Positions 31,041-52,957 of a stretch of 57,016 nt of DNA are shown one piece after another. The DNA is taken from NCBI GenBank assembly GCA_964422635.1, contig CAYRBY010000003.1:1-57016 (forward strand), read 5' to 3'. Position 1 is the stretch's first letter. The number at the start of each line of letters is the position of its first letter. The notes beneath the pieces were generated by a model that saw only the letters and a program-made list of their open reading frames with translations, made no database searches and was not told the DNA's origin. This stretch comes from an uncultured bacterium. Lineage in GTDB: Bacteria > Omnitrophota > Omnitrophia > Omnitrophales > Aquincolibacteriaceae. Both the position numbers and the translations under genes were made by a program.

Positions 31041-31062
31041 TTCCATTTTTTGGGGATCCATT

Positions 31063-32496: not shown

Positions 32497-34160
32497 AACC
32501 GGCCCCAGCCTCCTTTCAACGAATGAAAATTCCCGGCTGGAATGCGGATACTCTGTTCCTGATCCTGGTGCTGTTACAAACCTCAGTGTTCTGGCTTTTT
32601 CCAATGATCCCAACCAGCGATGGCCCTGTCCATCTCTACAATGCCTTGATTCTGAAAAATTATTTTCTTCCCGAAAGTGCCCCACTAAGAGAATTTTTCA
32701 TTTTAAACCTTCTTCCCAACCCCAACTGGCTGATCCAGCCGATTCTCTCTTTGCTGCTTTTTGTTTTTTCACCCAACACAGCAGAAAAGATTCTGGCAAC
32801 GGGTTACCTCATCGGATTCCCTTATGCGTTCCGCTTTGCCCTCCGTCAAATGCGCCCGTCTTCAGAGTTTTTGGCTTTCCTAGCACTGCCGCTGACGACT
32901 CAGTGGCTTTTCTTTCTCGGTCTTTATAATTTCTTTTACGGAACCCTTTTGTATTTGATGATCCTTGGCTATTCGGAAAAATACTGCCGTTCGCCCGCCA
33001 GGCATCACACTTTCATTCTTTCATGCCTGATGGCGCTTCTAAGCCTGACCCATCTGGTACCCTGCATTCTGGCGGCCGTCACGCTGATCGTGCTGGAGGT
33101 TTGGCGGTTTCTGGCAGCACGCATTCCCGCGGCAAGCGGCGGAAGCACCCGACAAGAGCCCCCTCCGCCCCAAACCGGAAGGATTCTGACATCGCTTGTA
33201 ATTCCCGCACTTGTGATTGGCTTTTTTCTGATCCGCAAAGGAACGGGTGAGGTTTTCGGGTTTCCTGATTACCCAGAAATGATGAAAAGACTTCAAATCA
33301 TTCTTTCTCCGAAATGGCTTTCGGCTTTCACGCAAAGCGAATTTGTTCCTTACGGAATTCTGCTGACCGCATTTCTCTCTCTCTTCTTTTACGTCTTCCT
33401 CCAGCGCAGGTTTCATTCGAGCGTAAGACTTTGGGGAGGTTTTTTTCTGGTTTTTTTCCTGCTTCTTGCACTCACCCTGGCCGTTCCATCGGCTGCTTCC
33501 GGAGGAACCGTCATTTACCCCAGAACGGCGCTCTACATGCTTTACATGGTTTTGTTCATGGCCTCCTTTGCTGCATATTCTCAGGAGGGGCGGAACTTTA
33601 TTGTGCTTTTATCCGCCTTTCTGGTTTTGATACTCGCGGGCCTTCACATCCATAGTTTCCGGAGCCTGAATCAGCTTCTGAAAAATTATCATTCCTGCGA
33701 TGCATCGATCTCACCGGGAAGCCTTTTAGTTCAGGTGAATTTTCCATCAGACACCCGATCAGCAAAGAAAAGAGCCTGGGCAGAGCGGCTGGATCCGTTT
33801 TATCATCAGGTGATGGCTTCCGCCCACAAAAGCGCCGCGATCCCGCTTACTCATTTCACAGCACATTGGGATCACCACACTGTTTCATACCGGAAGCAAT
33901 GGGATCTGTATTCAATCGTGGGGAAATCCCTGGATGAAATGGAGCTAAAACCCTTGGAAGCCGACCTGTCCTTGTTTGAACTTAAAACCGGCCGGGCGAT
34001 TGACAACATTCTTGTGTGGGACATTGCTCCTGAAAATCTGCGATCCGTAGAAAACACATCGCTTTTTCAATGGATCGGAAACAATTATACGGCAGTCTGC
34101 AGCTCTGATACTCCCGGCGCCCTGCGGCTCTATCAAAGGAAGAGCGAAAAAACGGCTTAG
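32493..34160 (+). CDS. polytopic membrane protein with C-terminal soluble domain, possible GT-C-type glycosyltransferase
   Basis: About 10 TM segments, then a soluble tail of roughly 180 aa. There is a 4-nt overlap with the preceding gene. Confidence 0.45.
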   Translation: MKPAPASFQRMKIPGWNADTLFLILVLLQTSVFWLFPMIPTSDGPVHLYNALILKNYFLPESAPLREFFILNLLPNPNWLIQPILSLLLFVFSPNTAEKILATGYLIGFPYAFRFALRQMRPSSEFLAFLALPLTTQWLFFLGLYNFFYGTLLYLMILGYSEKYCRSPARHHTFILSCLMALLSLTHLVPCILAAVTLIVLEVWRFLAARIPAASGGSTRQEPPPPQTGRILTSLVIPALVIGFFLIRKGTGEVFGFPDYPEMMKRLQIILSPKWLSAFTQSEFVPYGILLTAFLSLFFYVFLQRRFHSSVRLWGGFFLVFFLLLALTLAVPSAASGGTVIYPRTALYMLYMVLFMASFAAYSQEGRNFIVLLSAFLVLILAGLHIHSFRSLNQLLKNYHSCDASISPGSLLVQVNFPSDTRSAKKRAWAERLDPFYHQVMASAHKSAAIPLTHFTAHWDHHTVSYRKQWDLYSIVGKSLDEMELKPLEADLSLFELKTGRAIDNILVWDIAPENLRSVENTSLFQWIGNNYTAVCSSDTPGALRLYQRKSEKTA

Positions 34161-39134: not shown

Positions 39135-42100
39135 TTAAGCCGCGGCTGCGATACGCGCCTGAGCCGCAAGATAGGTCGAAACAGCCTGTACCACAGCCTG
39201 GAAATTCTGCGGGAAAAGGCTCCTGGGATTCAACACATGGAAATAATCCTCAGGCTGCTTTCCAAGCGCCATCGCCTGAAGAACCGTGATGACAGTTGAT
39301 GCAAAAAGCCCTGGATCCGACATCGCCGCCGGATCAAGGCTGAAAAGGTTCAAGCCCCTGCGCTTCGGGAAACTGCTAAAGACATCTTCTTCGCCAAGCA
39401 GCGCATGATGCTCAGCGGCTGCAAGTTTCGAATGCGGCACAGTCGCAAAAACAGATGCCCCCATTCCCCCTCTTACCTGAAGTTGTCCTCTTTTTAATTG
39501 AATCCCTTTTCCAGCGGCTAAACTCAAAATTTGTTTTTCGAATTTTCCAGCACCTTCCTCGTTCAGTGACGCCATATTCAAATGCAAAGCGCCGTTCACA
39601 GAAGCAACGACAGCGAGTACAGGAAGAAAACCAGCAAGATTTTCTGGCACTTTCGGCATTTGAACATGAACCACGGCCGAAAGCCCCGCAGCACCCTGAT
39701 CTTCGGGACTGCGCACAGGCAAACCTGAAATTTCTGACATCATTTTCTGAAGAGCCGGATCAGAAACCCCCGCCCGTTCAAAAAGTCCTGCATCATCCAT
39801 CACTTGCCGCTCCACCCATCTTTGAGCCGCTTGTTCCCGAGGAAGTTCGGCAGCCCCTTCTCGATCATCGTCTACAGCAACTTGCGCCGGCAGGCGGTCT
39901 GCAATTTGTTTAGAGGCATACACCCCTCCAAGGTCACGAGAAACATTGACCACAGAAGCCTGAACATCCGGCCCAAAAAGGCCGGGCGAGCGGAGCGCAA
40001 ACCGCGGGCTCACAGTTTCAGAAAGAGTCCGCTTCCATTCTTGAGTTGAAGAAATATCAGGGGTTGCGGCCAAGCGAAGCTCCGAACGCCCAACAAGCTC
40101 CTGTCTTTCCTTCAGTGTCCGGAACCTTTGAAAATCAGCACTTGCCACAATCTTGGCTTCGATTCGGTCCTGCAGCATGGTGGCTACAAGATTCATCTCA
40201 TCGAGCTCCGGCAGATCCCCTGCTTCCATCCGGTCGATCAGCATTTTCATAGATGCCGGTTTATAGCTGGTTCCCAGATCAAAAACGTGCTCAAGATCCT
40301 GACTATCTGTCATTCGAATCATTTCAAGCAGCTCAGGAATTTTATTGGTGGGTGCCACTAGCTGCATCTTACGGCCATGATAAATTTCAAGCGCCATCGC
40401 AGCAAAAAGCATACGGGCCGATCCGCCCCACTGACCTTCAACGGTTAGATGAAGTCCCAGTTCACGGGCTGAACCTTCAAGATCCGCTATCGCTTTCACA
40501 AGCCCCGGGTGGAGCTTGTTCATCTCATCGCTTCCTTCATCCCGGGATTCAAGCACAGACTTTTGAAGGTCATTGGTCCCGATTCCAAAAAAAGGCTTGG
40601 CCTCAGAATCCTGATGCTGTTCAAGTACGGCTTTCATAATATCCATTCGCTGCTCAACGGCCGAAACCTCTTCAAACATATAGCCAAACCGGATTTTGCT
40701 CAGCCTCTGCGTGATTTTATCTCCAAAATCAGAACCGGCCACCTTAGAGAAATCCGCGTCAGACTCCTTTCCGAACAGCTCTTCATGCGGCTTCATTTCA
40801 GCCTTGCTTAAAAGTTGCTTTCTGAACCAGTCCAACCCCTTTTCAAGCCCTTCCGCTTCCAGGGCATCGATGTCTGTGACCCACCCGTGTCGGCGCACAA
40901 CAGCGGCCTCGGTTTGGACAAGTGCTTCTTCTTCAAGTTCACGGATAAGTTCCTTCCGAGCCTCTTCAAAAAGCTTCTTCAGCGCCCCCACCTCTTCTAC
41001 TTTGAGCAGGTTCGGGAGCAAAATTTGGAGGTTGTCTTTCCGTGCACGGAGATAAGCACGGTAGATCGCCTTGATCTGCATTTTTCCAAACTCACGTTGA
41101 TTGCGGAACTCCCCGCGTTCATCCAGATAAAAACGGATATTGGAATGCGTTTTAAGAATGCTCTCAATCTGTTCTTCCGTTTTTCCCTGCACAAAAAACT
41201 TTGGGCGTTTATCTCCTTGAACGTCATAAAGGCGCACGGTCAACGGTGCTTCAGGATCAGAAAACGGCAGCAGCATTTCTTCGATGGCAAGGCTCAAGCG
41301 CATCTCGTCGAACTCAATACCCGCACGGTCCATTTCCCCCATCAATTGCTCCAGCCGGAGCAGGCCAATGCCGCGGGCCCCAAACTTTTGAAATCGCGGC
41401 TGATCGCCGTCGCGTTTCAGATAATCCAAACGCGATTCATCCGCCCAAAAATAAAAAGGCCGTCCATTAACAAGGGCCGGCAGCGACACTCGAGGAAGAA
41501 AATACGCATCCAGATACTTATAAACTTTGCCGCGCTCGATCATATCCCGCTGCGCTTCCGCGCTCGGGTTCACAACAGCAATTCCTTTCTTGCCGTCCAC
41601 GAGCACAAAATCACCTTCTTTAAGTTCCCTGAAATCCATTTTGCGGTCTTCAAAATCCAGAGCTTCAATGGGAACGATACCCTGATCTTTTGAAAAAATA
41701 AACCAGTGCGGAACACGCCCCGCCGCATCGTCCGGAGCAAAGCGTTTCAGCGTTGCGATGGAAACAACCTTTCCGCGTCCCTTATTTCTCATCATAAGCT
41801 CCGAAAAATCGGCTTCATGCCGGATCTTTTCGGCGAACACGATGAGATTCTTGTCGCCCCCGCGTTTCACGATGCCGTACTGGCTGACGTTGTAAAAACG
41901 CATGAGAAAATCGAGCTGCTCGTCGGGGAGATCGCGATACTGTTCTGATCCCTTCTGACTGAAAAATTTTGCAGTGCCATAATCCAGTGTCCGGCCGCGC
42001 TCCCTGATTTCATACATCACCTGGGTTCTGAATTCTGCAATAAATGTTCTCAGTCTTTCAGATGGGGCTGGGAAGAAGTTCAGGGTGTCTTTGTAAACAG

Positions 42101-45100
42101 CTTCAAACCTTTCAAGCTCAGCCTGCTTTTTGCGATCGCGCTCTGCCTGCAGGTCTGACGAGTCATAAATAAAATCATACGTATCAAACTCATCGCGTAT
42201 TCCTTCCAAAAGGGACCTTTGCTCTTCAAAAACCTTGATCAGTCTTGAGCCAACAAGGGTATCTCCGCCCCGTTTTCTGCTGTCTTCCACCATTTTCTTC
42301 AGACGATCCAAGCCGGGCTCGATTTTATTTTTGATAACCTGATTGATGGCGAATTGGGCGCGCTTTCCCTGCTCAACGATTTTCAGAATATCCGGAAGCA
42401 AATCGCTAATCAGCATGACGCGTCGGCCCGTCGCAATCTTCCGCTCCAAATCAATAAGCTGCTTGACCCTGTCCTTTTCGTCTTCGCCGTAATCCTCCGG
42501 TGAAATGTGCAGGCCATAAGGGAGCCTGAGAATGATTTCAAAAACTTTCACCAGAACTTGATCTCTCTCCCGGTTAATAAAAAGTTTTTTCCGCTCCTCT
42601 TCATCAAGACCGCTTTCGACATAAACAAGCTCTTCACGGTTTTCCAAGGCTGGAAGAAGTCTTTTGTCAACAATCCCAGAAGCCATGGTTAAATCCAGAT
42701 CATCCCCGGATTCTTCTTTGGCGGCAGCCAGCATCTCATCTTTCACGGTCCGCAGCGCTATCTCCGCCTTGATCTCCTGGGTCCTGATCAAGTCCATAGC
42801 CCGGCGGATCATAAGCTCTACAACATCCAGGGCTTGCGGGAGATACCCTTTCTCCTGAAGCTCACCCATGACCTGCATCCAAAGAGTGTCGAGGGTTTCA
42901 AGCTCATTGTGTATTTTTTGGACAACAACCTTGTCATCATCATAAGGTCTCTTCAGAGAAGTATTCATTTGCCGCTGGGAAGGACGCCAAAAAACCAATT
43001 CACCAGCCTCTACTTTCAGCATTTCCGGAGAAACGCCGTTAAGGCGGACATTCTGAGGGGACTTCGTTTCCTCCGATCGCAGCTCGGAGCGAACTGTATA
43101 GGCTTTTGAACTCTTTGTGGGATTCAACGGGATTTCAGGAAGGCCTTCCGCGCGGCGCGTAAACCGCAGCCCTGCAAAAAAGCTGTGCGGAACCTGCTTA
43201 CCATTAATCGTAATACCGTAAATTTCGTAATCCGGGCTGAGAGATTCAAAAAACGACTTTATATCGACCTTCTTCTGCTGTTCATCCTTAATGGACATGA
43301 TGTCCAGGTCCGTGATCAGTTCCCCGCCGACTTTAAGATGTCTCGAAAGCATGCCCACCGTGCCCGGAATGTTGCGCATATATTCCATGACGGCCTGCGT
43401 CATCACGATCACGTCAAAAGATTCGTTTTCAAAAGCTCCCAGGTTTTGCTCTAAATCCATAAGGGCAAATCTCTGCCGAACGCTGACCATAATCGTTCCG
43501 GCTTCACCCGTGTCGATGCCAAGAATCTGTGAAAGCCCCTCGTTTGAAAACAACAGGTCCTCAAACGCGCCGGAATAAATCTCTGCCTGATCGCCATACG
43601 TTCTTATCAGTTCGGCAGGAACCACGCCGCGGCCCACGCCAAGAAGGAGCACTCGAGGTTTCTGGCCGCTGGCAATACGATCCGTAATGGCCTTGGTCAC
43701 GCGGCCTCCATGCATTTCATCCAGAAAGGCAAAGTTGCGGATGACATTCTCTTCAAGGCCATATGGATTAGGCTGTTCTTCGGCCCGCAATTCAGAACGG
43801 CGCGAGTGATAAACGTTGGAATTGGCCGTAGCATCAAGAGGTATTTCATTGATCTGCTCGAAGGAACGCGTAAAGTGCAAACCCGCAAGAAGGCTCGTGG
43901 GGGCCTGTTTGCCTTCCAGCGTAATCCCGTAAATCTCATAATTGGGTCCAAGGGATTCAAAGAAACTTTTCACATCGACGCTTTTGCCTGTCACAGAATC
44001 CTTGATTGAGAAAATGTCGAAGTCCGTCATGAATTCGCCTTTCAAGGCGAGCTTGGCGGAAAGCCGGTCCACAAGCCGTGGCTTGTTCTCTATGTACTGC
44101 ATCACAGTCTGAGTGATGATAATGACGTCAAAGGACTGAGAATCAAAAGCTCCGAGATCCTTCTCTGCGTTCGAGATGACATAGCGGTCACGTATTGTTT
44201 TTATGATGGCCTCTGTTTCCGCCGCGCTTACCTTGCCCTCCCAGAACGATGCCAACTGTTCGGGTGAAAAAAGAAGATCCTCTTTGGCGGTTGAGTAAAG
44301 CTCAATTTTATCTCCGTATTCACGCAGCATGTCCGCAGGTGCCACGCCGCGTCCGATACCAATCAAGAGCACGCGGGGTTTATCCCCAGCAGCGATCCGG
44401 CGGTTAAGGGACGCCCGGATACGGCCTCCGTGCATTTCATCAACCTGAGCAAAACCACGCGTTACGTTTTCTTCGGATTTATAAGGATTGTCTTCTTCGG
44501 ATCTCAATTCCGAGCGGTTCCGGGGGCGAAGATTGTTGAGCGTATCTATCCGGTCAGTGAGATAAGCATAATCTGTTGTAAAGGCCGCTTCCGAGGGACG
44601 AATCACCCCAGCTCCAAGCTGAAGCAAAGAAAGGTATTGGGGAATCCTGTCATGCCAGTCGTTTTGTGCATTCGCGGCACGATTCGATAATGTCTTAAGA
44701 AGACTGGGGTCACGCGCAGCCGCATCAAAAGCAGCCGCGAGGGTTCCTCTGAGAGCCGCTCCGGTAAAATCGGTAAACAGAAAGCCGTTGCCATGGTCAG
44801 GGTGATCAAAGTAATTGATCAGCGTTGCGGCAATGCCTCCCACATTTCTTGCCACCACAGGCGTTCCTGAAGCCAATGATTCCAGTTGCGTAATACCGCC
44901 CGGCTCATAACGGGAAGGCATTAGAAAGAACCGGCTTGCCAGCATGACCTGCAGGGTTGTGGCGCCAGGGATAAAGGTATACTCACCGCGGATTCTGCCG
45001 GGGTATCTCCCCTCAAGTTCACGGGTCAAATCCCTCAGACGTTCTGCCGTCCCATCCCCCTCAGCAACAGGTCCACCCAGGAATATCTGCACTTCCGGGT

Positions 45101-48100
45101 TCATTTTGAGAAGACTTTCCAACACAGTCACTCCATCTTCCGTTTCCGTCAGGAGCTGGATTCCCTTCTGCTCCGCAACGCGTCCAATCATTGAGAGAAA
45201 AATCGCATTGGGGTTCTCGGTGAAACCAAAATCTTTTTGGGTTTTAACAAGTGCCGAATTTTTATAGTCCCAAAGGTTTTTGAGGAACTCTTCGTCTGAA
45301 TAGGCATCCATCAAGGGAGGCAATTCGAGCGCCTTACGGGCCTCTTCACCTTTTTTCCAGAACGTCTTTCTCGCCGAGGCTTCATCAATGCCGTTGCTGA
45401 TTCCAAACAAAATGTCTTTCAGCGGATTCAGGATATTATCAAGACCCTCCCCCGCCTCCCGCGTCAGCATTTGCTCGGCGTAGGGGCGGCTGACAGTAAG
45501 AATCGAACGGTTTACGTGTTCCATGGCGCTTGAAGTAATGTTGAGGAACCGGTCATCGTTGGGATCGGCAACATCTTTATAAAAATCGTGGTTGAGTCCC
45601 AGAAGCGGCCAAAGATCCAACCCATACTGATTCGTAAAGATTCGGCCCTGATAATCGCGTCCGTAATTGTGAATCATGTGAACCGTCCCCACATCCTTGA
45701 GCAGCGGATCTTGCGAGTATCGGGGGTCCCGCTGAAGAAATGTCGGAATTAAACCGGTAACCCAGTCATTGGAGATGATGAGCTGCGGATCGACACCGAG
45801 CGCCCTGTTTTGAACTACTTCAAGAGCGGCACGGGATAGGAAGACAGCGCGCCGTAATTCTTCCGAAGACGGCACTTTCGCATACAGTTTGTCGGCAAGC
45901 CGGGGATGTCTCAGAAAGAGGTATCGGACCCCTTCAGCTTTGGCCTCATACACACGGCTTTGGACCGTTCTTTGAAAGGTGCGGATTTTTTCATCCGTCA
46001 AGCCGGTCATGTGTGTACCCGAATCATACATCGGGCCAAATGTCATTCCGATCTCGGCGACAGGATCAGCTTTAATGGGCACCCTTTCACCGCTCTCGGT
46101 CATGAACCCCTTTTCAATCAAAGCAGACGCGGATTCATGTTTCTTGCCCTGATTATCTTCATACAGCGGCGTAATGACCGTAACGGATACGCCGCTCTCT
46201 GACAAAGCCTTGGCAAGGCCTTCTATAACTTTGGCCAGCCCTCCGGCAATCGCATGAGGACCTTCCGGAGCTACAAAAACAATTTCTCCAATACCGAGAG
46301 TTTCCAGGGCGTGCAAAGCGGGCAGCGCTCTTTCTTTGAAGAACGGATTCCACACTTTGCTGTCTTCCTTAAGACGGGTATGAATCTTTGAGAGCGCCTC
46401 GCGGAAACGGGGAACATCCTTAACTGCCTCGTAAACAATCTTTCCCATCCCTCGCATTTCCTCTTCGGTGACAAGGCGGTGAATCGTTGAGAGAAAACTA
46501 TCGTAGGGATTCGCATCAATAAGGCTCTGGCGGATTTCCTGAATGGCTTCCTGCTTTTTAAGATTACGCCGGAGGTCTTCAAGGACTGTTTTTGGCGGGA
46601 GATCGATCCTCATGACAGCATCATCACTCCGATTTTTTCCCTGCCACACCCGTTCACCTGTTTCGCGGTTTTGGGCATAGGCCGTCACGCCAAACTCACC
46701 GATCCGTCCGGGTTGAATCACTTTGCTTGCCTTGTAAATTCCTCCTCCGAGATCCTCAATGTCCCAATTAAGGATTTCGTGGTCCGTCCAATCCAACGGA
46801 CCTTGCGTATATTCTCCCCAATGAAAAAACATCTCTGATTTTTCAAGCGTTGCGGCGTCTGTCCTGAAAGTAATTTCAACCTTGGCGGAATCTCCGGACA
46901 CAGTCACAACAGGACGGGATGTAAATTGAATCGCTTCGGAATACGGTTTCTCGGACGAGCGCAGCTCTGAGCGTATTCCCATCTCTTTGTCAAAAACTTC
47001 AATGAGAATACGCCACCGCTCAAACTCACGGACCGAACTCTGTTTCAGACTCGTCCGGACCTCCTCTGCAAATCCCAGATCCACTTGCCGGAGAAGTTTC
47101 GTCATCGCCCCCTGAACATCAACATAGCTGCCCGTTTCAAAAGTGCGGAGCGCGTCATCAATATCAGACTGTACGGCCAATGCGTATCCGGGTGTATAGC
47201 TCAAGGTTTGGGCAGCCGGATCAAAGCGAATGTCGCCCGAATCATCTAAAGAAACAGCCTCTCTGAAAGTCGACAGAATCTCAGGGTCGCCAAGAACGTT
47301 TTGAAAAGTGTCCAGCAGCTCACTGTTTTCAGTTATCTCTGCCAAACCGGCCACTTTTGCCCGTTTCTCGGCCGGCAGCTTCCAGGTAAAGTCCCCCTCC
47401 GAGATCCGGCGGACAAGGAGCTTTAAAGTCTTAACATCTTCAGAGGTTTCGATATCCAATTTTCCAATCGCATTCAGAAACGCACGATCAAGACTCTCTG
47501 TCTCTGTGCTTGTTCTGAGCTCCGAACGCTGAGCTGGTTTCACGTTTGCAGAGCCGGCAAGGGCAAGACTGCTGTAGAATGTATCCCGGCTCTTTTCAAC
47601 AGCCTGAATGACATATTCATCTTTCGGATCCAGGTAGGCGGAACCTCTCAAATAACTGACAATAGAAGCATTCGCTTTCGTAAGGCTCAAAATCTCGGCG
47701 TCCGCAGGGCCGCGCAAATCAACATATACGGGCTTCATCCATTTTTTCAGCAAATCAATGGCTGAAAATTTCAAACCAACCTTTTGTCCTGGCCTTAACA
47801 CCTCTCTGAGCCTTGAACGAAACGGGAAAGAAACTCCGTTTTCCGTTTCCGGAGATTTCCTCCATGTTTCGGCAGGCTCAAGATCGCCCGTTCTTGAATC
47901 TTTAGAATAAAGCCAGGGTTCGGTGAGATAAGAATCTTCGTCGCCATAACCAAAAGTACCGCTGGGATTGTCATAAAGGAAATCAAAAAAGCCATTTTGA
48001 ACAAGCACTAAATTCGCCAGATCATAATCATAAGCCTCAATGGAAACATTCCAGCTCTCTGCCCAGACCTGAAAAGATCCAATTCCTTCTTTTGACAGAA

Positions 48101-51100
48101 TTTCCTGATGGTGCGATTCGTAATATTTTTTTAGCCCATAATAAACAATCATTCCGAGCGTATAAGGCTCTTCACCGCTTGAAACACCGATGCTTTTTAA
48201 GGTAACGGCTTTGTCCCCTGCCCGCATTTTCTCTTCAATGAGCTGGTCCAGAAACTTTATAGTTGCAATCTGATCAAATCGGAAAAAAGCGGTTGTTGCC
48301 CTTCCAAAATCAGCAGTTTTCGAAAAAGCCCGGAGGACGTCAGCTGCGAAGGCGCTGATTTCGGCAGGTTTAGCGGACAGATTTTCTTCCAGGTAGGCTC
48401 TGAAAGAGGATTGTCCGGAAGCCTGGATACGTGCCTGGATCATACCTTCAAAGAACTGTGCATACTCATAAGGAAGTTTATCCGCGCGGATTGCCTGAAA
48501 AACACTGGCGGCCTGCGCACTTTTCTCCGGCGAAAGCTTTTCATACACGAGCTTCAGAAATTGCTGTTTTAGCGCCGTCTCATCGAAAACCCCCGTCAGC
48601 AGAGTTTGGAGCTCGGACCGGAAAGAATCGGTCTCAACACTCCGGAGTTCCGAACGTGCCGCATAGGTAAGGAGAAGAATCTCTCGGGAACTGTCATAAA
48701 GTTTCCCGGAAAAGATTGCGCCTTCGATCCCCGGAGAAAGGATGGCCTCATGAAGTTCTGCATCTGTTATCTGATCAATAGAAGATACATGCAGGACTGC
48801 GATAACCGGTTGATCTGAAGCATCACGGCCTGCGATCACGGCATGCTGCATACCCTGATGCTCAAAGAAGCCACGGTACTGAAGGTCTGAAATACTAACG
48901 CCTGCGATTTGTGCGCTGCGGTTATCTTCCGCCAGACGGATAAGGTAGGCCGCAGATCCAAACGCTAATAAATTTTCGTACATGGCCCGGCGCCACAAAA
49001 GCTTGGCATCTGAAGATTCCGTTGTTCTCAAAACAACGTCTTCTCCCAGAACCGGCACGCCTGCAAGAATATGCCCGGAGGATATAACCAGCGGCGCAGA
49101 GAGTTTCAGCTGATAAGCAATCCCATGTTCGGATTTCACCATAAGCGGTGCCTGCGGCGAAGTGCTTTCATTTGTAATTCCGTAAAGAAAACTATCTGAG
49201 ACCTCAAGATTGAAAGCTCCACGCATGCCCGAAACAACGGAATTCTTAATAACACCTGTCGAACCGGGCAAAACTTCAGAAGCTGTAATGATGGAATTCT
49301 GGACCTCAACCTGCGTCCCGGGCAATGTTCCTGTAAATAGTTCCGGCACTCCCCAGAACTGCCGCGCCAAACGACCTTCGGCTGTATCCTGAAGAAGAAC
49401 AAGGATGTTCCGTCTGAAGATTCCTTCCGTCGTACCTTCCTCAATTCCTACATTCCCGAAATCCCACCAAAGAGACTTGGCTCCAGCATTAATGACCTTC
49501 ATGAAGGGCTGAGAAGAGTTTTTCCGTGAGCTCAGATAAAGGCTGAGTACGCGCTCCGTAAACTCCGGCTGATCAAGCCTTTCTTTCGCAAGAAATTTTT
49601 TCAAAGATTCTGCATTCTTGAATTGCGAAACATCAGCGGCAGCATTCTTAAGAACAAACTCCAAGCGAGTGAGAGGGATCCACCAATCCCCGTCGGTATC
49701 AGCCCGGTTCTTTGACTGTTCCAGGGGATTTTCCTCACTCAGCTCCTGCCGGTAAGAACGCATCATGCTGTCCCAGAAACGGCGGTCCACCGTAAAAGAT
49801 CCCAGGCTTTTGCCCATTCCGGAAACCTGGCTGTGCGCAGCTATGAACTCCTGGGCTTCCTGCACTGTTTTTGGTTTCTGCATGAGCCGTGCAGCCGTCC
49901 ACACCCCCGGCCCCTGCGCTTCAAGTGCAATCAACCCGTATTTATTGATAATGTCTTCGTACGGAAACTGCCCCACCAATGCCAAAATCTCGACAGGAGA
50001 ATCGCTCGGACTTTGAAGCTCCTGGAGCGGCACCGTCGGCACAAACACCTGATCTCCCCAAAACACCATGACGCGGCCAGGACGGTTCTTGGCAAAAATA
50101 GCGCTTTGAAAAATGGTCGACTCAAGAAGCGTCATCGGCACTTGACTTCCTTCTTTGTTCAGATAGCGGGGCATTGTGATACGGCTTTTAGAACCGTATT
50201 CGGAACCCGTAATCGGCCAAACACGGCTTCCAAAACCTGCCGTATGATAAATCGCGATGGTGGCTTCCCTTCCCTTTTCACGCCTAACTTTGTCCATCAG
50301 TGATTTCCAGCTGATCCCAGCCTGTTCTTTACTTTCCTGCCGGGCGCTTTGGTAGGCCAGAAGACTGCCCAGTCCGTTTCCGGGAGGAGAACCAGCACCG
50401 TAACTTTCCAGGACTGAAAACACCGTCGTATCTTTTCCGATAACCTGTCCGCGCATGCTTTCAAGTCTCTGCTTCCAATAACGCCGTTCGCTTTCCTGCG
50501 CCGAAACGACGATCACAATGTCGGGACCTTCGGAGTTTTCAACAGCGTTGTACATGGCCTGAATGTTTTGCTGTGCAAACGCCTGCTCCTCCAAACTCAG
50601 TCCGGCAGAGTCCGTGGCTCTCAGCTCTGAACGCGGCAACGCACCAGCTTGCGTTTGCTGAGGGACTTTTGCGCTGTCAGGAAGTGACACGGCCGAAGGC
50701 TTCCATTTAAACTCTGAAGAGGCGGAATCCGGCCGCCGGCCTTCCACCGCCCGGCTAAAACCAATATCTGACGAGGACAAAACCGCGCTGATGGTAGAGT
50801 TATTCGGAAGCAAGGCTTCAAGGTTCGGTTTTGCAGAAAATGTAAGAGCCGGCGATGAGGCGGTTTCAGGAACCTCGACATCCAAGACCTGGGATAACAC
50901 GGGATGGCTTTTAAACGCTGCTCTGACACCATTCAAAGAGTCGGAAGTCAGTCCCTTTTCCTTCATCCACAAAGGCAGTGCGACCTCGACAGCTTCTTTA
51001 AAAAGAAGCGCTTCCTGTTTGGTCAGAAAAGGGTTGGCATTTTTGAAATAGATTTTAAGGTCTGCGTTTTCTCCTCCCATGACCCGGGCATATCTTTCGC

Positions 51101-52802
51101 CGCGGTCAATCTCTCCAACGCGGGGCATCACAGAGGCAAAGGACAACTTTCTTTCTCTCAGGACATCCTGAATTCCCTGAGAGTGAAACCCTCCGCTGAC
51201 AATCACAAGAACAGGCCGCGAATCCGGGGTTTCTTTTTTCGAAAACACTTCGCGGCCAGGCTTGTTCATTTCCTCCCGCACAAAGCTCAGGGCATTTGAA
51301 ACCAAAGCTTCGTCACGCTCCCGGGCCTGCTGGTAAAAGAAAAATGCACGCCGGGTCAGCTCGGTCAATTTCGCAAGATCATCTTGATCTAAAACACCTT
51401 TGAGCAGCACCTCAAGATCCGGCTTTTGAGAATCCAGGAGCTCAAACTCCTGACGCGTCATCTCAAGATACAAAAGTTTCTGGAGGCGCTCATAATTGCG
51501 CACCCTCTCGACCCATTCCTTTTCTGCCGGGCCTGCAGCCAAGCTGTTGAGAATACCGTTTTCAAGCCGGTCCATTTCATCGAACAACCCTTGGACATCC
51601 AGTTCAGACTGAAAAACAACAGCCTTCATGGCAGACTTAAAAGACTGGGCTGTCTTTTCGTCTGCGGCTTTAAAGATCCCCTTGATCTCAAGTTCTTCGA
51701 GAATCCGTCTTGGAGAAAGTTCCTGCTTTTCAGCAGCTGGGTATCTCGATAGATCTTCTGCACTTAAAAAACCCTGGCGGTTCGCCAGATCTACCAGCGC
51801 AGAAAGAATTTCTTTGTTCTGAGATGAGCTCGAAAGAATATTCAGGATCTGCTTCCAGCTTTGAACAACTGCTTCGCTGCGAAGATTCGCTTTTACTTTC
51901 TTGAGTTGAAGCAATCTTGCAAAGTTGGGGAATCGCAGCTGCTCTATAGTGTCATCCAGATCGACATGCAAAGTCTGAAGGCTTTGGGCCTTGAGAGCAT
52001 CTGCGTAAACGCTCAAATCGCCGCTGCCTGCGTCTTTCCGGCGTATTCCAAATTGCCCATGCCTGCGCTTTTCCCGCTCCTTATAGAATCGCACCAGTTC
52101 AGGATTCAGTGTCTGCGTCATCGCGCTTTGCAGAGCCTCTTTGCCCTTTTCAAGGACCTCGGATACCCAGGGACGGACATTAAGCAAAGTCCGGTATGAT
52201 TCTAAATTCTCGCGGTAAAGCGGTGTTGTCTCCACCCCTTGAATTTTTACAGCTCGTAAGGTTCCAGTCTCCCGTGTCTCTGTTTGCTTCTGATACTGAG
52301 ACCACGCAAAAAGTTCAACCCCGGAGACTTCCCCCTTTTCGAACAAATCCTGGACAACTGCTTCGCCGGCGGCGGAAAGCTCCGGGAAAAAGTCAAAATA
52401 CTCAGGATGCAAATTGCCGCGGGCACCTTCTACAGCGATATAAAGATCAGAGTTGCGGGCTGCTTGGTTTTCAGCGAGAAACGTAAGGATTTCCTGAATG
52501 TGTTTTTGAGCATCGGGGTTAGCGTGAGCATCTTGGAGATGAATGACCCTGGGAGTTTCCGCACTTCCAGCTCCCTCTTCAATACTCTGAACAGCGCCCG
52601 CTGTTTCAGGCAGATTCTTGAGAAGTGCTGACAAAGCCCCTTTTTCTTCATAGGCAGGGCTGCGCGAAACCGCTGCGGGCATATCACCGGCATACGCTTG
52701 ACGGACAGTCCCCGGCCCCGTTGTCTCAGAACAGAGAAAGACAATGAGCAAAGGCCAAGCAATGAGCCGGGCCCACCCGGTTTTGATTTTGAACAAATTC
52801 AT
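39135..52802 (-). CDS. giant modular protein (4,555 aa) with eight RSELR-marked module junctions
   Basis: Single uninterrupted frame. The ATG at 52802 is preceded by GGAG. See the sub-features for modules. Confidence 0.9.
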   Translation of the reverse strand: MNLFKIKTGWARLIAWPLLIVFLCSETTGPGTVRQAYAGDMPAAVSRSPAYEEKGALSALLKNLPETAGAVQSIEEGAGSAETPRVIHLQDAHANPDAQKHIQEILTFLAENQAARNSDLYIAVEGARGNLHPEYFDFFPELSAAGEAVVQDLFEKGEVSGVELFAWSQYQKQTETRETGTLRAVKIQGVETTPLYRENLESYRTLLNVRPWVSEVLEKGKEALQSAMTQTLNPELVRFYKEREKRRHGQFGIRRKDAGSGDLSVYADALKAQSLQTLHVDLDDTIEQLRFPNFARLLQLKKVKANLRSEAVVQSWKQILNILSSSSQNKEILSALVDLANRQGFLSAEDLSRYPAAEKQELSPRRILEELEIKGIFKAADEKTAQSFKSAMKAVVFQSELDVQGLFDEMDRLENGILNSLAAGPAEKEWVERVRNYERLQKLLYLEMTRQEFELLDSQKPDLEVLLKGVLDQDDLAKLTELTRRAFFFYQQARERDEALVSNALSFVREEMNKPGREVFSKKETPDSRPVLVIVSGGFHSQGIQDVLRERKLSFASVMPRVGEIDRGERYARVMGGENADLKIYFKNANPFLTKQEALLFKEAVEVALPLWMKEKGLTSDSLNGVRAAFKSHPVLSQVLDVEVPETASSPALTFSAKPNLEALLPNNSTISAVLSSSDIGFSRAVEGRRPDSASSEFKWKPSAVSLPDSAKVPQQTQAGALPRSELRATDSAGLSLEEQAFAQQNIQAMYNAVENSEGPDIVIVVSAQESERRYWKQRLESMRGQVIGKDTTVFSVLESYGAGSPPGNGLGSLLAYQSARQESKEQAGISWKSLMDKVRREKGREATIAIYHTAGFGSRVWPITGSEYGSKSRITMPRYLNKEGSQVPMTLLESTIFQSAIFAKNRPGRVMVFWGDQVFVPTVPLQELQSPSDSPVEILALVGQFPYEDIINKYGLIALEAQGPGVWTAARLMQKPKTVQEAQEFIAAHSQVSGMGKSLGSFTVDRRFWDSMMRSYRQELSEENPLEQSKNRADTDGDWWIPLTRLEFVLKNAAADVSQFKNAESLKKFLAKERLDQPEFTERVLSLYLSSRKNSSQPFMKVINAGAKSLWWDFGNVGIEEGTTEGIFRRNILVLLQDTAEGRLARQFWGVPELFTGTLPGTQVEVQNSIITASEVLPGSTGVIKNSVVSGMRGAFNLEVSDSFLYGITNESTSPQAPLMVKSEHGIAYQLKLSAPLVISSGHILAGVPVLGEDVVLRTTESSDAKLLWRRAMYENLLAFGSAAYLIRLAEDNRSAQIAGVSISDLQYRGFFEHQGMQHAVIAGRDASDQPVIAVLHVSSIDQITDAELHEAILSPGIEGAIFSGKLYDSSREILLLTYAARSELRSVETDSFRSELQTLLTGVFDETALKQQFLKLVYEKLSPEKSAQAASVFQAIRADKLPYEYAQFFEGMIQARIQASGQSSFRAYLEENLSAKPAEISAFAADVLRAFSKTADFGRATTAFFRFDQIATIKFLDQLIEEKMRAGDKAVTLKSIGVSSGEEPYTLGMIVYYGLKKYYESHHQEILSKEGIGSFQVWAESWNVSIEAYDYDLANLVLVQNGFFDFLYDNPSGTFGYGDEDSYLTEPWLYSKDSRTGDLEPAETWRKSPETENGVSFPFRSRLREVLRPGQKVGLKFSAIDLLKKWMKPVYVDLRGPADAEILSLTKANASIVSYLRGSAYLDPKDEYVIQAVEKSRDTFYSSLALAGSANVKPAQRSELRTSTETESLDRAFLNAIGKLDIETSEDVKTLKLLVRRISEGDFTWKLPAEKRAKVAGLAEITENSELLDTFQNVLGDPEILSTFREAVSLDDSGDIRFDPAAQTLSYTPGYALAVQSDIDDALRTFETGSYVDVQGAMTKLLRQVDLGFAEEVRTSLKQSSVREFERWRILIEVFDKEMGIRSELRSSEKPYSEAIQFTSRPVVTVSGDSAKVEITFRTDAATLEKSEMFFHWGEYTQGPLDWTDHEILNWDIEDLGGGIYKASKVIQPGRIGEFGVTAYAQNRETGERVWQGKNRSDDAVMRIDLPPKTVLEDLRRNLKKQEAIQEIRQSLIDANPYDSFLSTIHRLVTEEEMRGMGKIVYEAVKDVPRFREALSKIHTRLKEDSKVWNPFFKERALPALHALETLGIGEIVFVAPEGPHAIAGGLAKVIEGLAKALSESGVSVTVITPLYEDNQGKKHESASALIEKGFMTESGERVPIKADPVAEIGMTFGPMYDSGTHMTGLTDEKIRTFQRTVQSRVYEAKAEGVRYLFLRHPRLADKLYAKVPSSEELRRAVFLSRAALEVVQNRALGVDPQLIISNDWVTGLIPTFLQRDPRYSQDPLLKDVGTVHMIHNYGRDYQGRIFTNQYGLDLWPLLGLNHDFYKDVADPNDDRFLNITSSAMEHVNRSILTVSRPYAEQMLTREAGEGLDNILNPLKDILFGISNGIDEASARKTFWKKGEEARKALELPPLMDAYSDEEFLKNLWDYKNSALVKTQKDFGFTENPNAIFLSMIGRVAEQKGIQLLTETEDGVTVLESLLKMNPEVQIFLGGPVAEGDGTAERLRDLTRELEGRYPGRIRGEYTFIPGATTLQVMLASRFFLMPSRYEPGGITQLESLASGTPVVARNVGGIAATLINYFDHPDHGNGFLFTDFTGAALRGTLAAAFDAAARDPSLLKTLSNRAANAQNDWHDRIPQYLSLLQLGAGVIRPSEAAFTTDYAYLTDRIDTLNNLRPRNRSELRSEEDNPYKSEENVTRGFAQVDEMHGGRIRASLNRRIAAGDKPRVLLIGIGRGVAPADMLREYGDKIELYSTAKEDLLFSPEQLASFWEGKVSAAETEAIIKTIRDRYVISNAEKDLGAFDSQSFDVIIITQTVMQYIENKPRLVDRLSAKLALKGEFMTDFDIFSIKDSVTGKSVDVKSFFESLGPNYEIYGITLEGKQAPTSLLAGLHFTRSFEQINEIPLDATANSNVYHSRRSELRAEEQPNPYGLEENVIRNFAFLDEMHGGRVTKAITDRIASGQKPRVLLLGVGRGVVPAELIRTYGDQAEIYSGAFEDLLFSNEGLSQILGIDTGEAGTIMVSVRQRFALMDLEQNLGAFENESFDVIVMTQAVMEYMRNIPGTVGMLSRHLKVGGELITDLDIMSIKDEQQKKVDIKSFFESLSPDYEIYGITINGKQVPHSFFAGLRFTRRAEGLPEIPLNPTKSSKAYTVRSELRSEETKSPQNVRLNGVSPEMLKVEAGELVFWRPSQRQMNTSLKRPYDDDKVVVQKIHNELETLDTLWMQVMGELQEKGYLPQALDVVELMIRRAMDLIRTQEIKAEIALRTVKDEMLAAAKEESGDDLDLTMASGIVDKRLLPALENREELVYVESGLDEEERKKLFINRERDQVLVKVFEIILRLPYGLHISPEDYGEDEKDRVKQLIDLERKIATGRRVMLISDLLPDILKIVEQGKRAQFAINQVIKNKIEPGLDRLKKMVEDSRKRGGDTLVGSRLIKVFEEQRSLLEGIRDEFDTYDFIYDSSDLQAERDRKKQAELERFEAVYKDTLNFFPAPSERLRTFIAEFRTQVMYEIRERGRTLDYGTAKFFSQKGSEQYRDLPDEQLDFLMRFYNVSQYGIVKRGGDKNLIVFAEKIRHEADFSELMMRNKGRGKVVSIATLKRFAPDDAAGRVPHWFIFSKDQGIVPIEALDFEDRKMDFRELKEGDFVLVDGKKGIAVVNPSAEAQRDMIERGKVYKYLDAYFLPRVSLPALVNGRPFYFWADESRLDYLKRDGDQPRFQKFGARGIGLLRLEQLMGEMDRAGIEFDEMRLSLAIEEMLLPFSDPEAPLTVRLYDVQGDKRPKFFVQGKTEEQIESILKTHSNIRFYLDERGEFRNQREFGKMQIKAIYRAYLRARKDNLQILLPNLLKVEEVGALKKLFEEARKELIRELEEEALVQTEAAVVRRHGWVTDIDALEAEGLEKGLDWFRKQLLSKAEMKPHEELFGKESDADFSKVAGSDFGDKITQRLSKIRFGYMFEEVSAVEQRMDIMKAVLEQHQDSEAKPFFGIGTNDLQKSVLESRDEGSDEMNKLHPGLVKAIADLEGSARELGLHLTVEGQWGGSARMLFAAMALEIYHGRKMQLVAPTNKIPELLEMIRMTDSQDLEHVFDLGTSYKPASMKMLIDRMEAGDLPELDEMNLVATMLQDRIEAKIVASADFQRFRTLKERQELVGRSELRLAATPDISSTQEWKRTLSETVSPRFALRSPGLFGPDVQASVVNVSRDLGGVYASKQIADRLPAQVAVDDDREGAAELPREQAAQRWVERQVMDDAGLFERAGVSDPALQKMMSEISGLPVRSPEDQGAAGLSAVVHVQMPKVPENLAGFLPVLAVVASVNGALHLNMASLNEEGAGKFEKQILSLAAGKGIQLKRGQLQVRGGMGASVFATVPHSKLAAAEHHALLGEEDVFSSFPKRRGLNLFSLDPAAMSDPGLFASTVITVLQAMALGKQPEDYFHVLNPRSLFPQNFQAVVQAVSTYLAAQARIAAAA
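39138..40073 (-). other. C-terminal tail domain shared by the three large proteins (aa 4244-4555)
   Basis: Starts RSELR-LAATPD. Ends ...VLQAMALGKQPEDYFHVLNPRSLFPQNFQAVVQAVSTYLAAQARIAAAA, which aligns by eye with the tails at 10798-11859 and 52961-53857. Confidence 0.6.
40074..40088 (-). other. RSELR junction motif (4,555-aa protein, copy 8, aa 4239-4243)
   Basis: Coding strand cgt tcg gag ctt cgc. Context ELVG-RSELR-LAATPD. Confidence 0.95.
40089..43076 (-). other. PEP-utilizing-enzyme-like module (aa 3243-4238; Enzyme I / PPDK / PEP synthase family)
   Basis: Swivel-domain-like GDFVLVDGKKGIAVVNPS. TIM-barrel motifs FGARGIGLLRLEQLM and FFGIGTNDLQKSV. I could not find the canonical phospho-His motif (G-G-x-T-S-H) or the catalytic Cys context. 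Confidence 0.55.
43077..43091 (-). other. RSELR junction motif (4,555-aa protein, copy 7, aa 3238-3242)
   Basis: Coding strand cgc tcc gag ctg cga. Context AYTV-RSELR-SEETKSPQ. Confidence 0.95.
43092..43784 (-). other. class-I methyltransferase-like module, second copy (aa 3007-3237)
   Basis: PRVLLLGVGRGVVPAEL (a GxGxG-type motif I) and FDVIVMTQAVMEYM. This is a paralogue of the preceding module. Confidence 0.45.
43785..43799 (-). other. RSELR junction motif (4,555-aa protein, copy 6, aa 3002-3006)
   Basis: Coding strand cgt tct gaa ttg cgg. Context YHSR-RSELR-AEEQPNPY. Confidence 0.95.
43800..44501 (-). other. class-I methyltransferase-like module, first copy (aa 2768-3001)
   Basis: PRVLLIGIGRGVAPADM and FDVIIITQTVMQYI. 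It begins SEEDNPY...EENV.R.FA..DEMHGGR, as its paralogue does. Confidence 0.45.
44502..44516 (-). other. RSELR junction motif (4,555-aa protein, copy 5, aa 2763-2767)
   Basis: Coding strand cgc tcg gaa ttg aga. Context RPRN-RSELR-SEEDNPY. Confidence 0.95.
44517..46958 (-). other. glycogen/starch-synthase-like GT5 module with an N-terminal beta-sandwich-like region (aa 1949-2762)
   Basis: IVFVAPEGPHAIAGGLAKVIEGLAKALSESGVSVTVITPLYE (the GlgA KxGGL-type motif region), SMIGRVAEQKGIQLL, and PSRYEPGGITQLESLASGTPVVARNVGGI. The N-terminal ~120 aa (EITFRTD...MFFHWGEY...IYKASKV) resemble a carbohydrate-binding-type sandwich, with low confidence. Confidence 0.7.
46959..46973 (-). other. RSELR junction motif (4,555-aa protein, copy 4, aa 1944-1948)
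   Basis: Coding strand cgc tca gag ctg cgc. Context EMGI-RSELR-SSEKPY. Confidence 0.95.
46974..47513 (-). other. small module of unknown function (aa 1764-1943)
   Basis: Bounded by RSELR copies 3 and 4. I recognise no motif. Confidence 0.4.
47514..47528 (-). other. RSELR junction motif (4,555-aa protein, copy 3, aa 1759-1763)
   Basis: Coding strand cgt tcg gag ctc aga. Context KPAQ-RSELR-TSTETE. Confidence 0.95.
47529..48641 (-). other. CheR-like SAM-dependent methyltransferase module (aa 1388-1758)
   Basis: LKSIGVSSGEEPYTLGMIVY matches the CheR-type xGCSxGEEPYSxAM motif. It is followed by SIEAYDYDLANLVLVQNGFF, compare atDid...l..A..G.Y. Confidence 0.55.
48642..48656 (-). other. RSELR junction motif (4,555-aa protein, copy 2, aa 1383-1387)
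   Basis: Coding strand cgt tcg gaa ctc cgg. Context TYAA-RSELR-SVETDS. A degenerate echo, RSELQ, lies 8 aa downstream. Confidence 0.95.
48657..50618 (-). other. NDP-sugar pyrophosphorylase-like module (fucokinase / GDP-fucose pyrophosphorylase N-domain-like) plus beta-helix-like region (aa 729-1382)
   Basis: DIVIVVSAQESERRYWKQRL...GNGLGSLLAY and IYHTAGFGSRVWPITGSEYGSKSRITMP resemble the motifs I recall for that family (IVLTA..Y..QL ... GSGGATL ... HsGG.SkRlP). WWDFGNVG is followed by short repeats such as VQNSIITASEVLPGSTGVIKNSVVSG. Confidence 0.4.
50619..50633 (-). other. RSELR junction motif (4,555-aa protein, copy 1, aa 724-728)
   Basis: Coding strand cgt tca gag ctg aga. Context GALP-RSELR-ATDSAG. 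Confidence 0.95.
50634..52802 (-). other. signal/anchor plus N-terminal domain shared with the 3,019-aa protein (aa 1-723)
   Basis: Hydrophobic N-terminus WARLIAWPLLIVFLCSE with an AYA-G site. IHLQDAHANPDAQKHIQEILTFLAEN (QDAH at nt 52524-52535), VEGARG, and VIVSGGFHSQGIQDVLRERKLSFASVMPRV (GGFH at nt 51183-51194). Confidence 0.7.
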
Positions 52803-52855
52803 ATCGCTCCGCGATGGTTTTACGCGTGTTGGGGCCTTTTTAAAAGTCTTACAGA

Positions 52856-52884
52856 AAGATACCCTACGAAACGGCTTGGGTCAA
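52856..52884 (-). promoter_or_regulatory. candidate sigma70-type promoter in the gap between the two large ORFs
   Basis: The minus strand reads TTGACC-17 nt-TATCTT, about 55 nt upstream of the 4,555-aa ORF start. A second candidate, TTGCAA-17-TATGTT, lies further upstream. These are sequence matches only. Confidence 0.25.
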
Positions 52885-52957
52885 ACCAGGGGGGAAACTT
52901 TATCTGCTTAAAACATAAGGGGTTGTAAAAAACTTTGCAATCCGGAAAAGACGTCTT

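Follow-up and report, generated by a model that had tools for sequence, protein, structure and literature searches.

Positions 1 to 57,016 of contig CAYRBY010000003.1 (GenBank assembly GCA_964422635.1; this whole stretch of 57,016 nucleotides is called the window, and coordinates lie on its minus strand unless stated otherwise), from an uncultured bacterium of the Omnitrophota, encode three giant paralogous proteins, A, B and C, built as chains of modules. In these proteins, and in the large family to which they belong, the pentapeptide R-[SA]-E-x-R recurs at the junctions between modules, in the window always as RSELR. At roughly even odds (about 0.5), a dedicated protein recognises this motif; the likeliest such reader is an endopeptidase, in which case the giants would be exported polyproteins. 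The initial annotation of the region, made from its letters alone, had proposed that RSELR is functional punctuation between modules, a proposal that is now strongly supported by conservation at the junctions, 57-fold enrichment in the family, coincidence with the ends of homology blocks, location in linkers of low model confidence and absence from ordinary neighbouring genes beyond chance.

Protein A was re-read as the single uninterrupted frame of 4,555 codons first described (39135..52802), and its eight copies of RSELR fall exactly where they had been placed: at amino acid (aa) 724 (50619..50633), 1383 (48642..48656), 1759 (47514..47528), 1944 (46959..46973), 2763 (44502..44516), 3002 (43785..43799), 3238 (43077..43091) and 4239 (40074..40088). 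A six-frame scan found six further copies in protein B (open reading frame (ORF) 10795..19854; copies at 17461-17475, 16825-16839, 15271-15285, 14266-14280, 13459-13473 and 11860-11874) and one (53858-53872) in protein C, whose ORF (52958..57010) runs past the end of the window. The sole extra match in that scan is on the plus strand (52444-52458), in an antisense frame after a stop codon, and among 11,675 aa of the window's other long frames there were no copies. RSELR had been estimated to be expected far less than once, and indeed the 15 copies compare with 0.027 expected from the composition of the three proteins (mean of 0.027 and maximum of 1 in 2,000 shuffles). It is by far the top 5-mer of A, B and C combined, all others occurring at most twice.

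The 15 copies differ in their codons at every position: CGT, CGC, CGG or AGG for the first Arg, TCG, TCA, TCC or TCT for Ser, GAG or GAA for Glu, CTT, CTG, CTC or TTG for the Leu that occupies position 4 in all of them, and CGG, CGA, AGA or CGC for the last Arg. The constraint therefore acts on the peptide and not on the DNA. This bears on the proposal that the copies are a nucleic-acid-level signal (for recombination, RNA processing or translational pausing), a repeat relic, or an artefact of chance or composition. Such a signal would fit the shuffling of modules at motif points that is described below; however, the synonymous variation in all five codons effectively refutes it, DNA and protein flanking the motif are unrelated between junctions, the enrichment over composition is 57- to 500-fold, and a degenerate sequence of 15 nt is too short for homologous recombination. 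The proposal is given next to no weight.

The family was delimited by exhaustive HMMER profile search with the N-domain, a domain of ~600 aa that follows the N-terminal segment in A, B and C2 (the orthologue of C described below), with representative proteins taken as clusters at 50% identity. In total, 7,419 representative clusters were found at E ≤ 1e-3 and 1,075 at E ≤ 1e-30; a word-index homologue search misses the family, returning three matches for the N-domain and none for the two methyltransferase (MTase) modules of A. The matches listed are mostly 2,000-7,800 aa long, with the N-domain at the N terminus, and the longest listed has 7,839 aa. Named members include MDP3921746.1 from a Candidatus Omnitrophota bacterium (P0152) and one from a Candidatus Omnitrophica bacterium (P0153). 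The ClpB of the window agrees with this lineage but is only suggestive, being too conserved a protein: its closest named relatives come from Verrucomicrobiae (77%) and Omnitrophica (75%). Neither the N-domain nor the tail is represented by a Pfam or NCBIfam model.

The layout shared by A, B and C2 consists of a basic and then hydrophobic N-terminus, the ~600-aa domain, a first RSELR at aa 724-794 and, after the final RSELR, a last segment of 304-359 aa, with no hydrophobic segment beyond the N-terminal one by a hydropathy heuristic. The three N-domains are 24-30% identical in pairs and share the motifs LQDAHA...DAQ, EG, ERD and GGFHxQG. The same plan is found across the family: by the same heuristic, a basic/hydrophobic stretch precedes the N-domain in 105 of 129 members; the first motif stands at a median of aa 739, directly after the N-domain; the median length is 316 aa both for internal segments and for the piece beyond the last motif (interquartile range of the latter 278-360). 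An [AS]A-COOH end closes 76% of members (AA in 88 and SA in 28 of 153), and the remainder look truncated. This end follows an amphipathic helix in A (39138-39230), B (10798-10890) and C (52961-53050), as well as family-wide, and has the look of a signal at the C terminus, which might serve secretion, recognition by a PDZ/tail-specific protease, or degradation. The tails are of at least two unrelated-looking types (B-like and A/C-like), which have in common only the last ~30 residues.

Between N-domain and tail, the cassettes include glycogen-synthase-like glycosyltransferases (GTs) of family GT5, UDP-glucose dehydrogenase, MTases, a phosphoenolpyruvate (PEP)-utilising enzyme, transaldolase and many of no known family. 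Most cassettes of the members P0130 and P0140 have no Pfam match; a borderline match to Peptidase_M50 (site-2 protease) was noted at aa 2443-2522 of P0130 (27.4 bits against a cut-off of 27.2). P0014 (1,178 aa) and similar short members consist of signal, N-domain, one RSExR and tail without cargo, which suggests that N-domain and tail are the functional core and the enzyme cassettes inserts. By these features, the family is one of modular proteins with predicted export, composed of an N-terminal signal or anchor, the ~600-aa N-domain, variable cassettes and a ~300-aa tail ending in [AS]A.

The motif obeys a strict grammar. In the top 150 family proteins, the 5-mer counts were 207 for RSELR, 171 for RSEVR, 92 for RSEMR, 82 for RSEAR, 73 for RAEVR, 45 for RSETR, 41 for RSEIR and 33 for RSESR, and R-[SA]-E-[VLMATIS]-R, the commonest 5-mer class, occurs 839 times in 151 family proteins against 14.6 expected (57-fold). 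At position 2, Ser is enriched 114-fold and Ala 19-fold. Lys does not stand in for either Arg (1.5-fold at position 1, and not among the listed substitutions at position 5), and Asp is not accepted for Glu (0.7-fold). The flanks carry little information (≤0.25 bit per position), with small residues or Pro at −3 to −1 and a small residue at +1 followed by some Glu. The acidic or polar stretch that the initial annotation had seen after each RSELR thus persists family-wide as a weak tendency only (Glu ~15% at +2 to +6). A site of the signal-peptidase-I type, with small residues at −1 and −3, was considered and rejected, as those positions hold merely ~0.1-0.25 bit.

Specificity was assessed at 80 independent metagenome loci. 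The motif count there is 300 in 198,691 aa of family ORFs, whereas the 362 ordinary ORFs beside them contain 2 in 145,418 aa against 2.83 expected, which is chance level; the possibility that the motif is about as frequent in ordinary genes as in the giants, raised at the outset, is therefore not what is seen among these neighbours. Any other ORF rich in the motif at these loci is the C-terminal portion of a neighbouring family gene, with an [AS]A or QA end. By these counts, the motif is specific to the family; its varying synonymous codons place the selection at the amino-acid level.

Homologues keep the motif at equivalent junctions while its flanks diverge. The only relative in the genome collection, 'uncultured bacterium SRP342105_co1_457', a metagenome-assembled genome (L001), carries syntenic orthologues of C (C2, 2,303 aa) and of A (A2). 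The junctions of A2, which is 83% identical to A, read RAELR, RSELR, RSELR, RSELR, RAELR, then, after a missing MTase module, RSELR and RNELR, so that changes are limited to Ser to Ala and Ser to Asn. The family member P0005 (59% identical to A) keeps RSELR intact at each of the five junctions that can be aligned, and the 10 residues on each side of it are 30-38% identical against 42-51% further out. The motif is, by this comparison, an island of conservation within a drifting linker.

The motif also coincides with the limits of exchanged and duplicated segments. Across the family, a motif is no more than 10 aa away from 31% of the starts and 20% of the ends of BLAST high-scoring segment pairs, where random placement gives 5%, and pairs that span a motif number 326 of 1,234 versus 713 at random. 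For example, the GT5 cassette of A aligns to residues 3294-4144 of P0059, where RSELR stands at 3300 and 4137, and its MTase cassette aligns to residues 5370-5608, with RSELR at 5370 and 5602; unlike in A, the two cassettes are not neighbours there. Within A, the two MTase copies (43092-44516) are 54% identical and in register from one RSELR to just before the next, whereas A2 and P0005 have a single copy and the extra module is missing together with its motif (RSELR 6). The tandem duplication, seen in this genome only, is a recent gain of a cassette including its motif, and these alignments identify the motif as the delimiter of the units of module shuffling and duplication.

The structural setting of the motif was modelled with AlphaFold2 (AF2) for aa 2720-3290 of A. 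The model contains two folded Rossmann-type cores, and all three motifs of the fragment lie in coil with a predicted local distance difference test (pLDDT) score below 50 (fragment residues 1-61, 261-302 and 504-571); its modest quality (mean pLDDT 57.5) is partly due to the alignment of seven rows, which covers only MTase copy 2. At 1,120 sites, hydrophobic content drops from 0.32 to 0.25, and Pro, Gly and Ser rise, within 10-15 residues of the motif. Some motifs are closely spaced (8-60 aa apart) and flank short low-complexity spacers that carry no domain, an arrangement typical of processing sites. R-[S>A]-E-[V/L/M/A/T/I/S]-R heads every cassette as well as the tail, and the linker around it is short, little conserved and low in hydrophobic residues. 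The earlier description of every RSELR as sitting at a domain junction holds in that each motif that could be assessed falls between folded units; it does not hold in reverse, since segments 5 and 8 of A are multi-domain and some domain boundaries have no motif.

A motif that always lies in linkers between folded units, and whose residues are charged and helix-compatible, might act without any reader, as a cap or hinge (for example through salt-bridged Arg and Glu) that insulates domains during co-translocational folding. This is improbable: a physical spacer would accept Lys for Arg and Asp for Glu, which the motif does not; invariance amid drifting neighbours would not be expected of it, nor would the protein- or genome-specific fourth residue described next; and AF2 gives the motif no defined structure.

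The residue at position 4 varies across the family in a non-random manner. The majority variant of a protein accounts for a fraction of 0.637 of its sites, compared with 0.426 ± 0.011 in shuffles, identifying the fourth residue, on this statistic, as lineage-specific and homogeneous within a protein or genome. That A and B share RSELR although their N-domains are only 25% identical suggests that the specificity is set per genome, as would fit a reader working in trans or N-domains whose action extends to every paralogue. The neighbourhoods of family genes give the most recurrent neighbours as housekeeping genes throughout (UvrC, HolA, MurJ, HflX, amidase and BamD), and a dedicated partner, if there is any, is built in or encoded elsewhere.

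The strictness of Arg and Glu would also suit recognition by the active site of a modifying enzyme, and MTase and GT modules are common cargo; the motif might accordingly be a site where Arg, Glu or Ser is methylated, ADP-ribosylated, glycosylated or phosphorylated, perhaps by an embedded MTase or GT. However, Ser is replaceable by Ala and, in the orthologue, by Asn, and so is not the target, and no modifying module is universal, many members having no detectable MTase or GT. Modification is regarded as quite improbable.

A more serious alternative is a short linear docking motif that is not cleaved, each copy being bound by a partner that organises, folds, tethers or quality-controls the chain; possible partners are a protein that serves as scaffold or anchor, a chaperone for export or folding, and the N-domain or tail of the family itself. 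The strict grammar, information-poor flanks, location in linkers, family specificity and lineage-specific fourth residue fit docking equally well, and the conserved chassis of N-domain and tail could provide the binding site. Yet a chain has one N-domain and one tail against up to ~20 motifs, which makes stoichiometric binding in cis awkward, the tandem motifs around domain-free spacers are more typical of processing sites, and no repeated binding-domain partner was found beside family genes. Docking is rated as rather unlikely.

For the endopeptidase, the N-domain is a built-in candidate. In the AF2 model of the N-domain of B (aa 80-648, 17911..19617; mean pLDDT 84, predicted template modelling score 0.71), a small parallel-sheet core holds a helical insert of ~290 aa. 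The residues D14-x-H16, E44, R366 and H394 do not vary among 18 diverse members, with H-to-E and R-to-H spacings of 28 each; small insertions lengthen both in A. More broadly, [QE]D[AG]H occurs in 207 and GG[FY]H in 217 of 218 proteins. Proteins of the TIKI superfamily (TIKI, TraB, PrgY, erythromycin esterase and ChaN) use comparable catalytic sets, H85 and E113 in Bcr135 and E3900, H3902, E3930, R4001 and H4030 in RRSP, and among the listed structures of the superfamily are those of Bcr135 (3b55/2rad), EreC (6xcs) and HopBA1 (5t09) (PMC6254334). The N-domain spacings match those of Bcr135 and RRSP (28 from His to Glu; 28 versus 29 from Arg to the second His).

The N-domain resembles the superfamily in its D/E-x-H, the Glu 28 residues on, the Arg 28-29 residues before a second G-x-x-H, and a parallel beta-sheet core flanked by helices. 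It differs in the ~290-aa helical insert between core strands, in having Asp and not Glu as the first acidic residue, and in lacking a significant score to any curated member. The highest-probability Foldseek matches were 3b55 (0.47, E 0.25), 2rad (0.35), 6xcs (0.25) and 5t09 (0.14), none of them significant; Erythro_esteras was reached below the Pfam threshold in 2 of the 18 members (E 0.0023), as was ChaN (E 0.11); and sequence and profile searches of the N-domain against the PDB gave no real match. The TIKI assignment is well motivated but not statistically established. Tiki is a membrane-tethered, extracytoplasmic protein, and the N-domain is predicted to be both as well.

The proposed sequence of events would begin with an exported chain that carries the motif at the head of each cassette and of the tail. 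A dedicated protein would read R-[SA]-E-x-R. Most likely this reader is an endopeptidase with sequence specificity, and its cuts at the successive marks would release, or at least unlink, a module set of fixed stoichiometry, which would make the chain a bacterial polyprotein. The foremost candidate for the protease is the TIKI-type N-domain, which could work in cis or serve every paralogue of the cell in trans; a separate enzyme encoded in the genome is just as possible. Proteolytic processing is plausible, and is circumstantially supported by the strict grammar, the lineage-specific fourth residue, the tandem copies and, at the N terminus of each member, a TIKI-type domain with an intact catalytic pattern.

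Several observations weigh against this proposal. Support for cleavage is drawn from sequence throughout, and a non-cleaving docking site would equally show a strict short linker motif. The junction model was built on a shallow alignment. The match of the N-domain to the TIKI fold is short of statistical significance in both Foldseek and Pfam, and the superfamily comprises sequence-specific endopeptidases (Tiki and RRSP), esterases (Ere enzymes) and proteins that are not hydrolases (ChaN and PMT), so that the activity of the N-domain could be non-proteolytic. No protease gene is conserved beside family genes, with no gene family present at more than 9 of 58 loci (80 metagenome loci). Finally, the N-domain of B is nearer to those of RAEVR users (43% and 40% identity) than to that of A (25%), yet A and B both use RSELR, which argues against simple co-evolution in cis of an N-domain and its own sites.

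A more specific version of the polyprotein proposal, offered tentatively and held to be possible but on the doubtful side, is that these are self-processing exported polyproteins, in which a membrane-tethered N-terminal TIKI-type endopeptidase (or paralogues in trans) cuts each R-[SA]-E-x-R and releases an equimolar enzyme kit outside the cytoplasm of the producer. The kit would comprise cytoplasm-type enzymes for sugar-nucleotide, methyl-transfer and phosphotransfer chemistry, delivered to the periplasm or into an attached host or prey cell, and the N-domain with the [AS]A-terminated tail would be the chassis for delivery and maturation.

In order from the N terminus, protein A is composed of a signal or anchor, the N-domain, seven RSELR-bounded modules and a tail ending in ...IAAAA. 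Its aa 1-39 (52686..52802), with a basic N-terminus (K5, K7 and R12) before the hydrophobic stretch LIAWPLLIVFLC, read as a Sec-type signal peptide or signal anchor. The N-domain follows at aa 78-656 (50835..52571), with the key residues Q90-D91-A92-H93, E125, R496-D497 and G537-G-F-H540, and is a putative hydrolase of the TIKI/erythromycin-esterase superfamily with a large helical insert. Segment 1 had been annotated as NDP-sugar-pyrophosphorylase-like; it has no Pfam or NCBIfam match, is the N-domain of the family, and the assignment was rejected. RSELR 1 stands just after it (RAELR in A2 and RSELR in P0005).

The module identities proposed beforehand stood for the GT5 (with GT1), the two MTase-like and the PEP-utilizing segments. 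For segment 3 (aa 1388-1758, 47529..48641), the CheR-like match to a domain binding S-adenosylmethionine is weak and below threshold (E 4.8e-5; 23 bits where the cut-off is 27), and modules 2 (aa 729-1382, 48657..50618) and 4 (aa 1764-1943, 46974..47513) have no detectable family. Module 5 (aa 1949-2762, 44517..46958) is an N-terminal extension plus a GT5/GT1 glycogen-synthase-like enzyme of the GT-B type, with Pfam and NCBIfam matches to GT5 and GT1 spanning aa 2174-2683 and an intact GT-B E-x7-E motif. At the position of the GlgA 'KTGGL' (aa 2187-2195, window ~46218-46244), IAGGLAKV is read; the Lys of KTGGL, a residue of importance for catalysis in the GlgA of E. coli, is not kept here, and the activity and donor specificity of this module are uncertain.

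After RSELR 5, which is placed in a low-pLDDT linker, come the class-I MTase-like modules 6 (copy 1; aa 2768-3001, 43800..44501) and 7 (copy 2; aa 3007-3237, 43092..43784), both with GxGxG intact and separated by RSELR 6. Module 8, between RSELR 7 and RSELR 8 (aa 3243-4238, 40089..43076), is multi-domain and includes a PEP-utilizers_C domain resembling enzyme I of the phosphotransferase system (PTS-EI) at aa ~3720-3955 (Pfam/NCBIfam). RSELR 8, which is RNELR in A2, is the last motif and heads the conserved tail (aa 4244-4555, 39138..40073), with its amphipathic helix and ...AAAA-COOH end. In profile and sequence searches of the unassigned parts of A and B against the PDB, only the MTase and PTS-EI-like parts were matched.

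Protein B, built on the same chassis, has 3,019 aa from a TTG start or 3,009 aa from an ATG 10 codons downstream, and contains a HemK-like MTase module at aa 831-976 (Pfam/NCBIfam). Its N-terminal hydrophobic segment (window 19735-19760, aa ~32-40) ends in ...FTVSCGKD, which fits a PROSITE-style lipobox; B may be a lipoprotein, whereas A and C2 appear to have plain signal peptides. Of protein C, the C-terminal 1,350+ aa lie in the window (52958..57016), with a tail ending in ...ATQA and a complete UDP-glucose 6-dehydrogenase module in which GGSCFPKD and GxGxxG are intact. C and A share a strand, with A starting 155 bp downstream of the end of C (gap 52803-52957), and B is ~19 kb off. A second family gene also ends just upstream at the metagenome loci L011, L012, L015, L046, L053 and L079, and family genes occur in tandem.

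The remainder of the window is ordinary chromosome, with genes for OtsA/OtsB, amylase, ClpB, SurE, Sua5, a major facilitator superfamily transporter, DegT, and an ATP-binding cassette (ABC) transporter with a transglutaminase-core protein. The last two belong to a plus-strand cluster (27005-34160) of a transglutaminase-core protein (538 aa), an ABC ATPase, an ABC_tran_2 protein and two ORFs (477 and 555 aa) without Pfam match; proteins of the transglutaminase fold can be cysteine proteases, and no link of the cluster to the giant genes was found. An ORF of 401 aa without Pfam match (9216-10421) lies between B and ClpB and also adjoins ClpB on the independent Logan contig L082. At 5-3960, three adjacent genes encode a trehalose-phosphatase, a trehalose-6-phosphate synthase (GT20) and an enzyme of the alpha-amylase family. 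They form a cluster for sugar storage or osmolytes, and the giants of this genome also carry glycogen-synthase-like and UDP-glucose dehydrogenase modules.

Giant Omnitrophota proteins in which GT5, GT1, MTase, PPDK-type and other enzyme domains follow one another along the chain, most with signal peptides or transmembrane helices, have been described, and the surveys ask whether the chains act whole or cut (10.1101/2023.11.21.568195; 10.64898/2026.06.07.730766). West-Roberts et al. (2023) suspected cleavage at points that were not known, which prevented splitting the chains for structure prediction (10.1101/2023.11.21.568195). The window family resembles these giants ('Archaeovorin'-type; 'multi-enzyme metabolic cluster' class) in lineage, in GT5/GT1/MTase/PEP-PPDK cargo and in the signal peptide or anchor. 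Its proteins are smaller, at 4,555, 3,019 and ~2,300 aa and up to 7,839 aa among listed members, against >10,000 aa (Nielsen & Lui 2026) or >30,000 aa (West-Roberts 2023) in the catalogues, and the shared N-domain, [AS]A tail and R-[SA]-E-x-R are mentioned in neither preprint. The window proteins are related to the multi-enzyme giants of Omnitrophota but smaller; the giants were already known, and the punctuation rule and conserved chassis are new. Literature searches returned no mention of an RSELR-type motif, the N-domain or the [AS]A tail, in agreement with the initial annotation, which knew of no described family with this motif; occurrences of motif variants in PL7 alginate lyases are unrelated.

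The same annotation had likened the logic of A to that of viral polyproteins and MARTX toxins. MARTX proteins have a similar logic, in that a conserved chassis for delivery flanks interchangeable effector cassettes and a built-in protease cuts the unstructured linkers between these; one of the effectors, RRSP, belongs to the TIKI-family endopeptidases. The cuts in MARTX linkers fall after Leu, and no strict pentapeptide marks them. As a matter of membership the comparison fails: Pfam scans of the window proteins gave no RTX/HemolysinCabind repeats and no Peptidase C80 (cysteine protease) domain, the N-terminus is of the Sec type and not confined to type I secretion, and the cargo is of a metabolic type. 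In viral polyproteins (picorna-, flavi-, poty- and nidoviruses), one ORF encodes many units, and the short junction consensus varies by lineage with the protease embedded in the chain, much as the motif co-varies with lineage in the window family. Unlike these, the giants are products of cellular chromosomal genes, are predicted to be exported, have modules shuffled and duplicated between paralogues and are known here from sequence alone, and a TIKI-fold protease is not a known viral polyprotein protease type. The window proteins are thus neither MARTX toxins nor, by membership, viral-type polyproteins. The gingipain polyproteins of Porphyromonas gingivalis (RgpA, Kgp and HagA) are surface proteins cut after Arg or Lys into cooperating catalytic and adhesin domains; they differ in that their sites are single basic residues and not a pentapeptide, and Pfam scans of the window proteins gave neither a C25 peptidase nor a type IX secretion C-terminal domain.

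For giants that may act whole or be cut, R-[SA]-E-x-R gives the first explicit, testable candidate sites of cutting or recognition. It also provides a parsing rule by which mostly 'dark' modules, of a median ~316 aa, can be annotated, and defines a large uncurated family with a conserved chassis. The N-domain, a candidate peptidase, would be a new clade of the TIKI superfamily. If cleavage takes place, it would represent a widespread bacterial polyprotein strategy for supplying enzyme sets of fixed stoichiometry in ultra-small, possibly host-dependent cells; if the chains also process themselves, they would be a cellular counterpart of viral polyproteins, with a new class of substrate and a new role for the TIKI fold.

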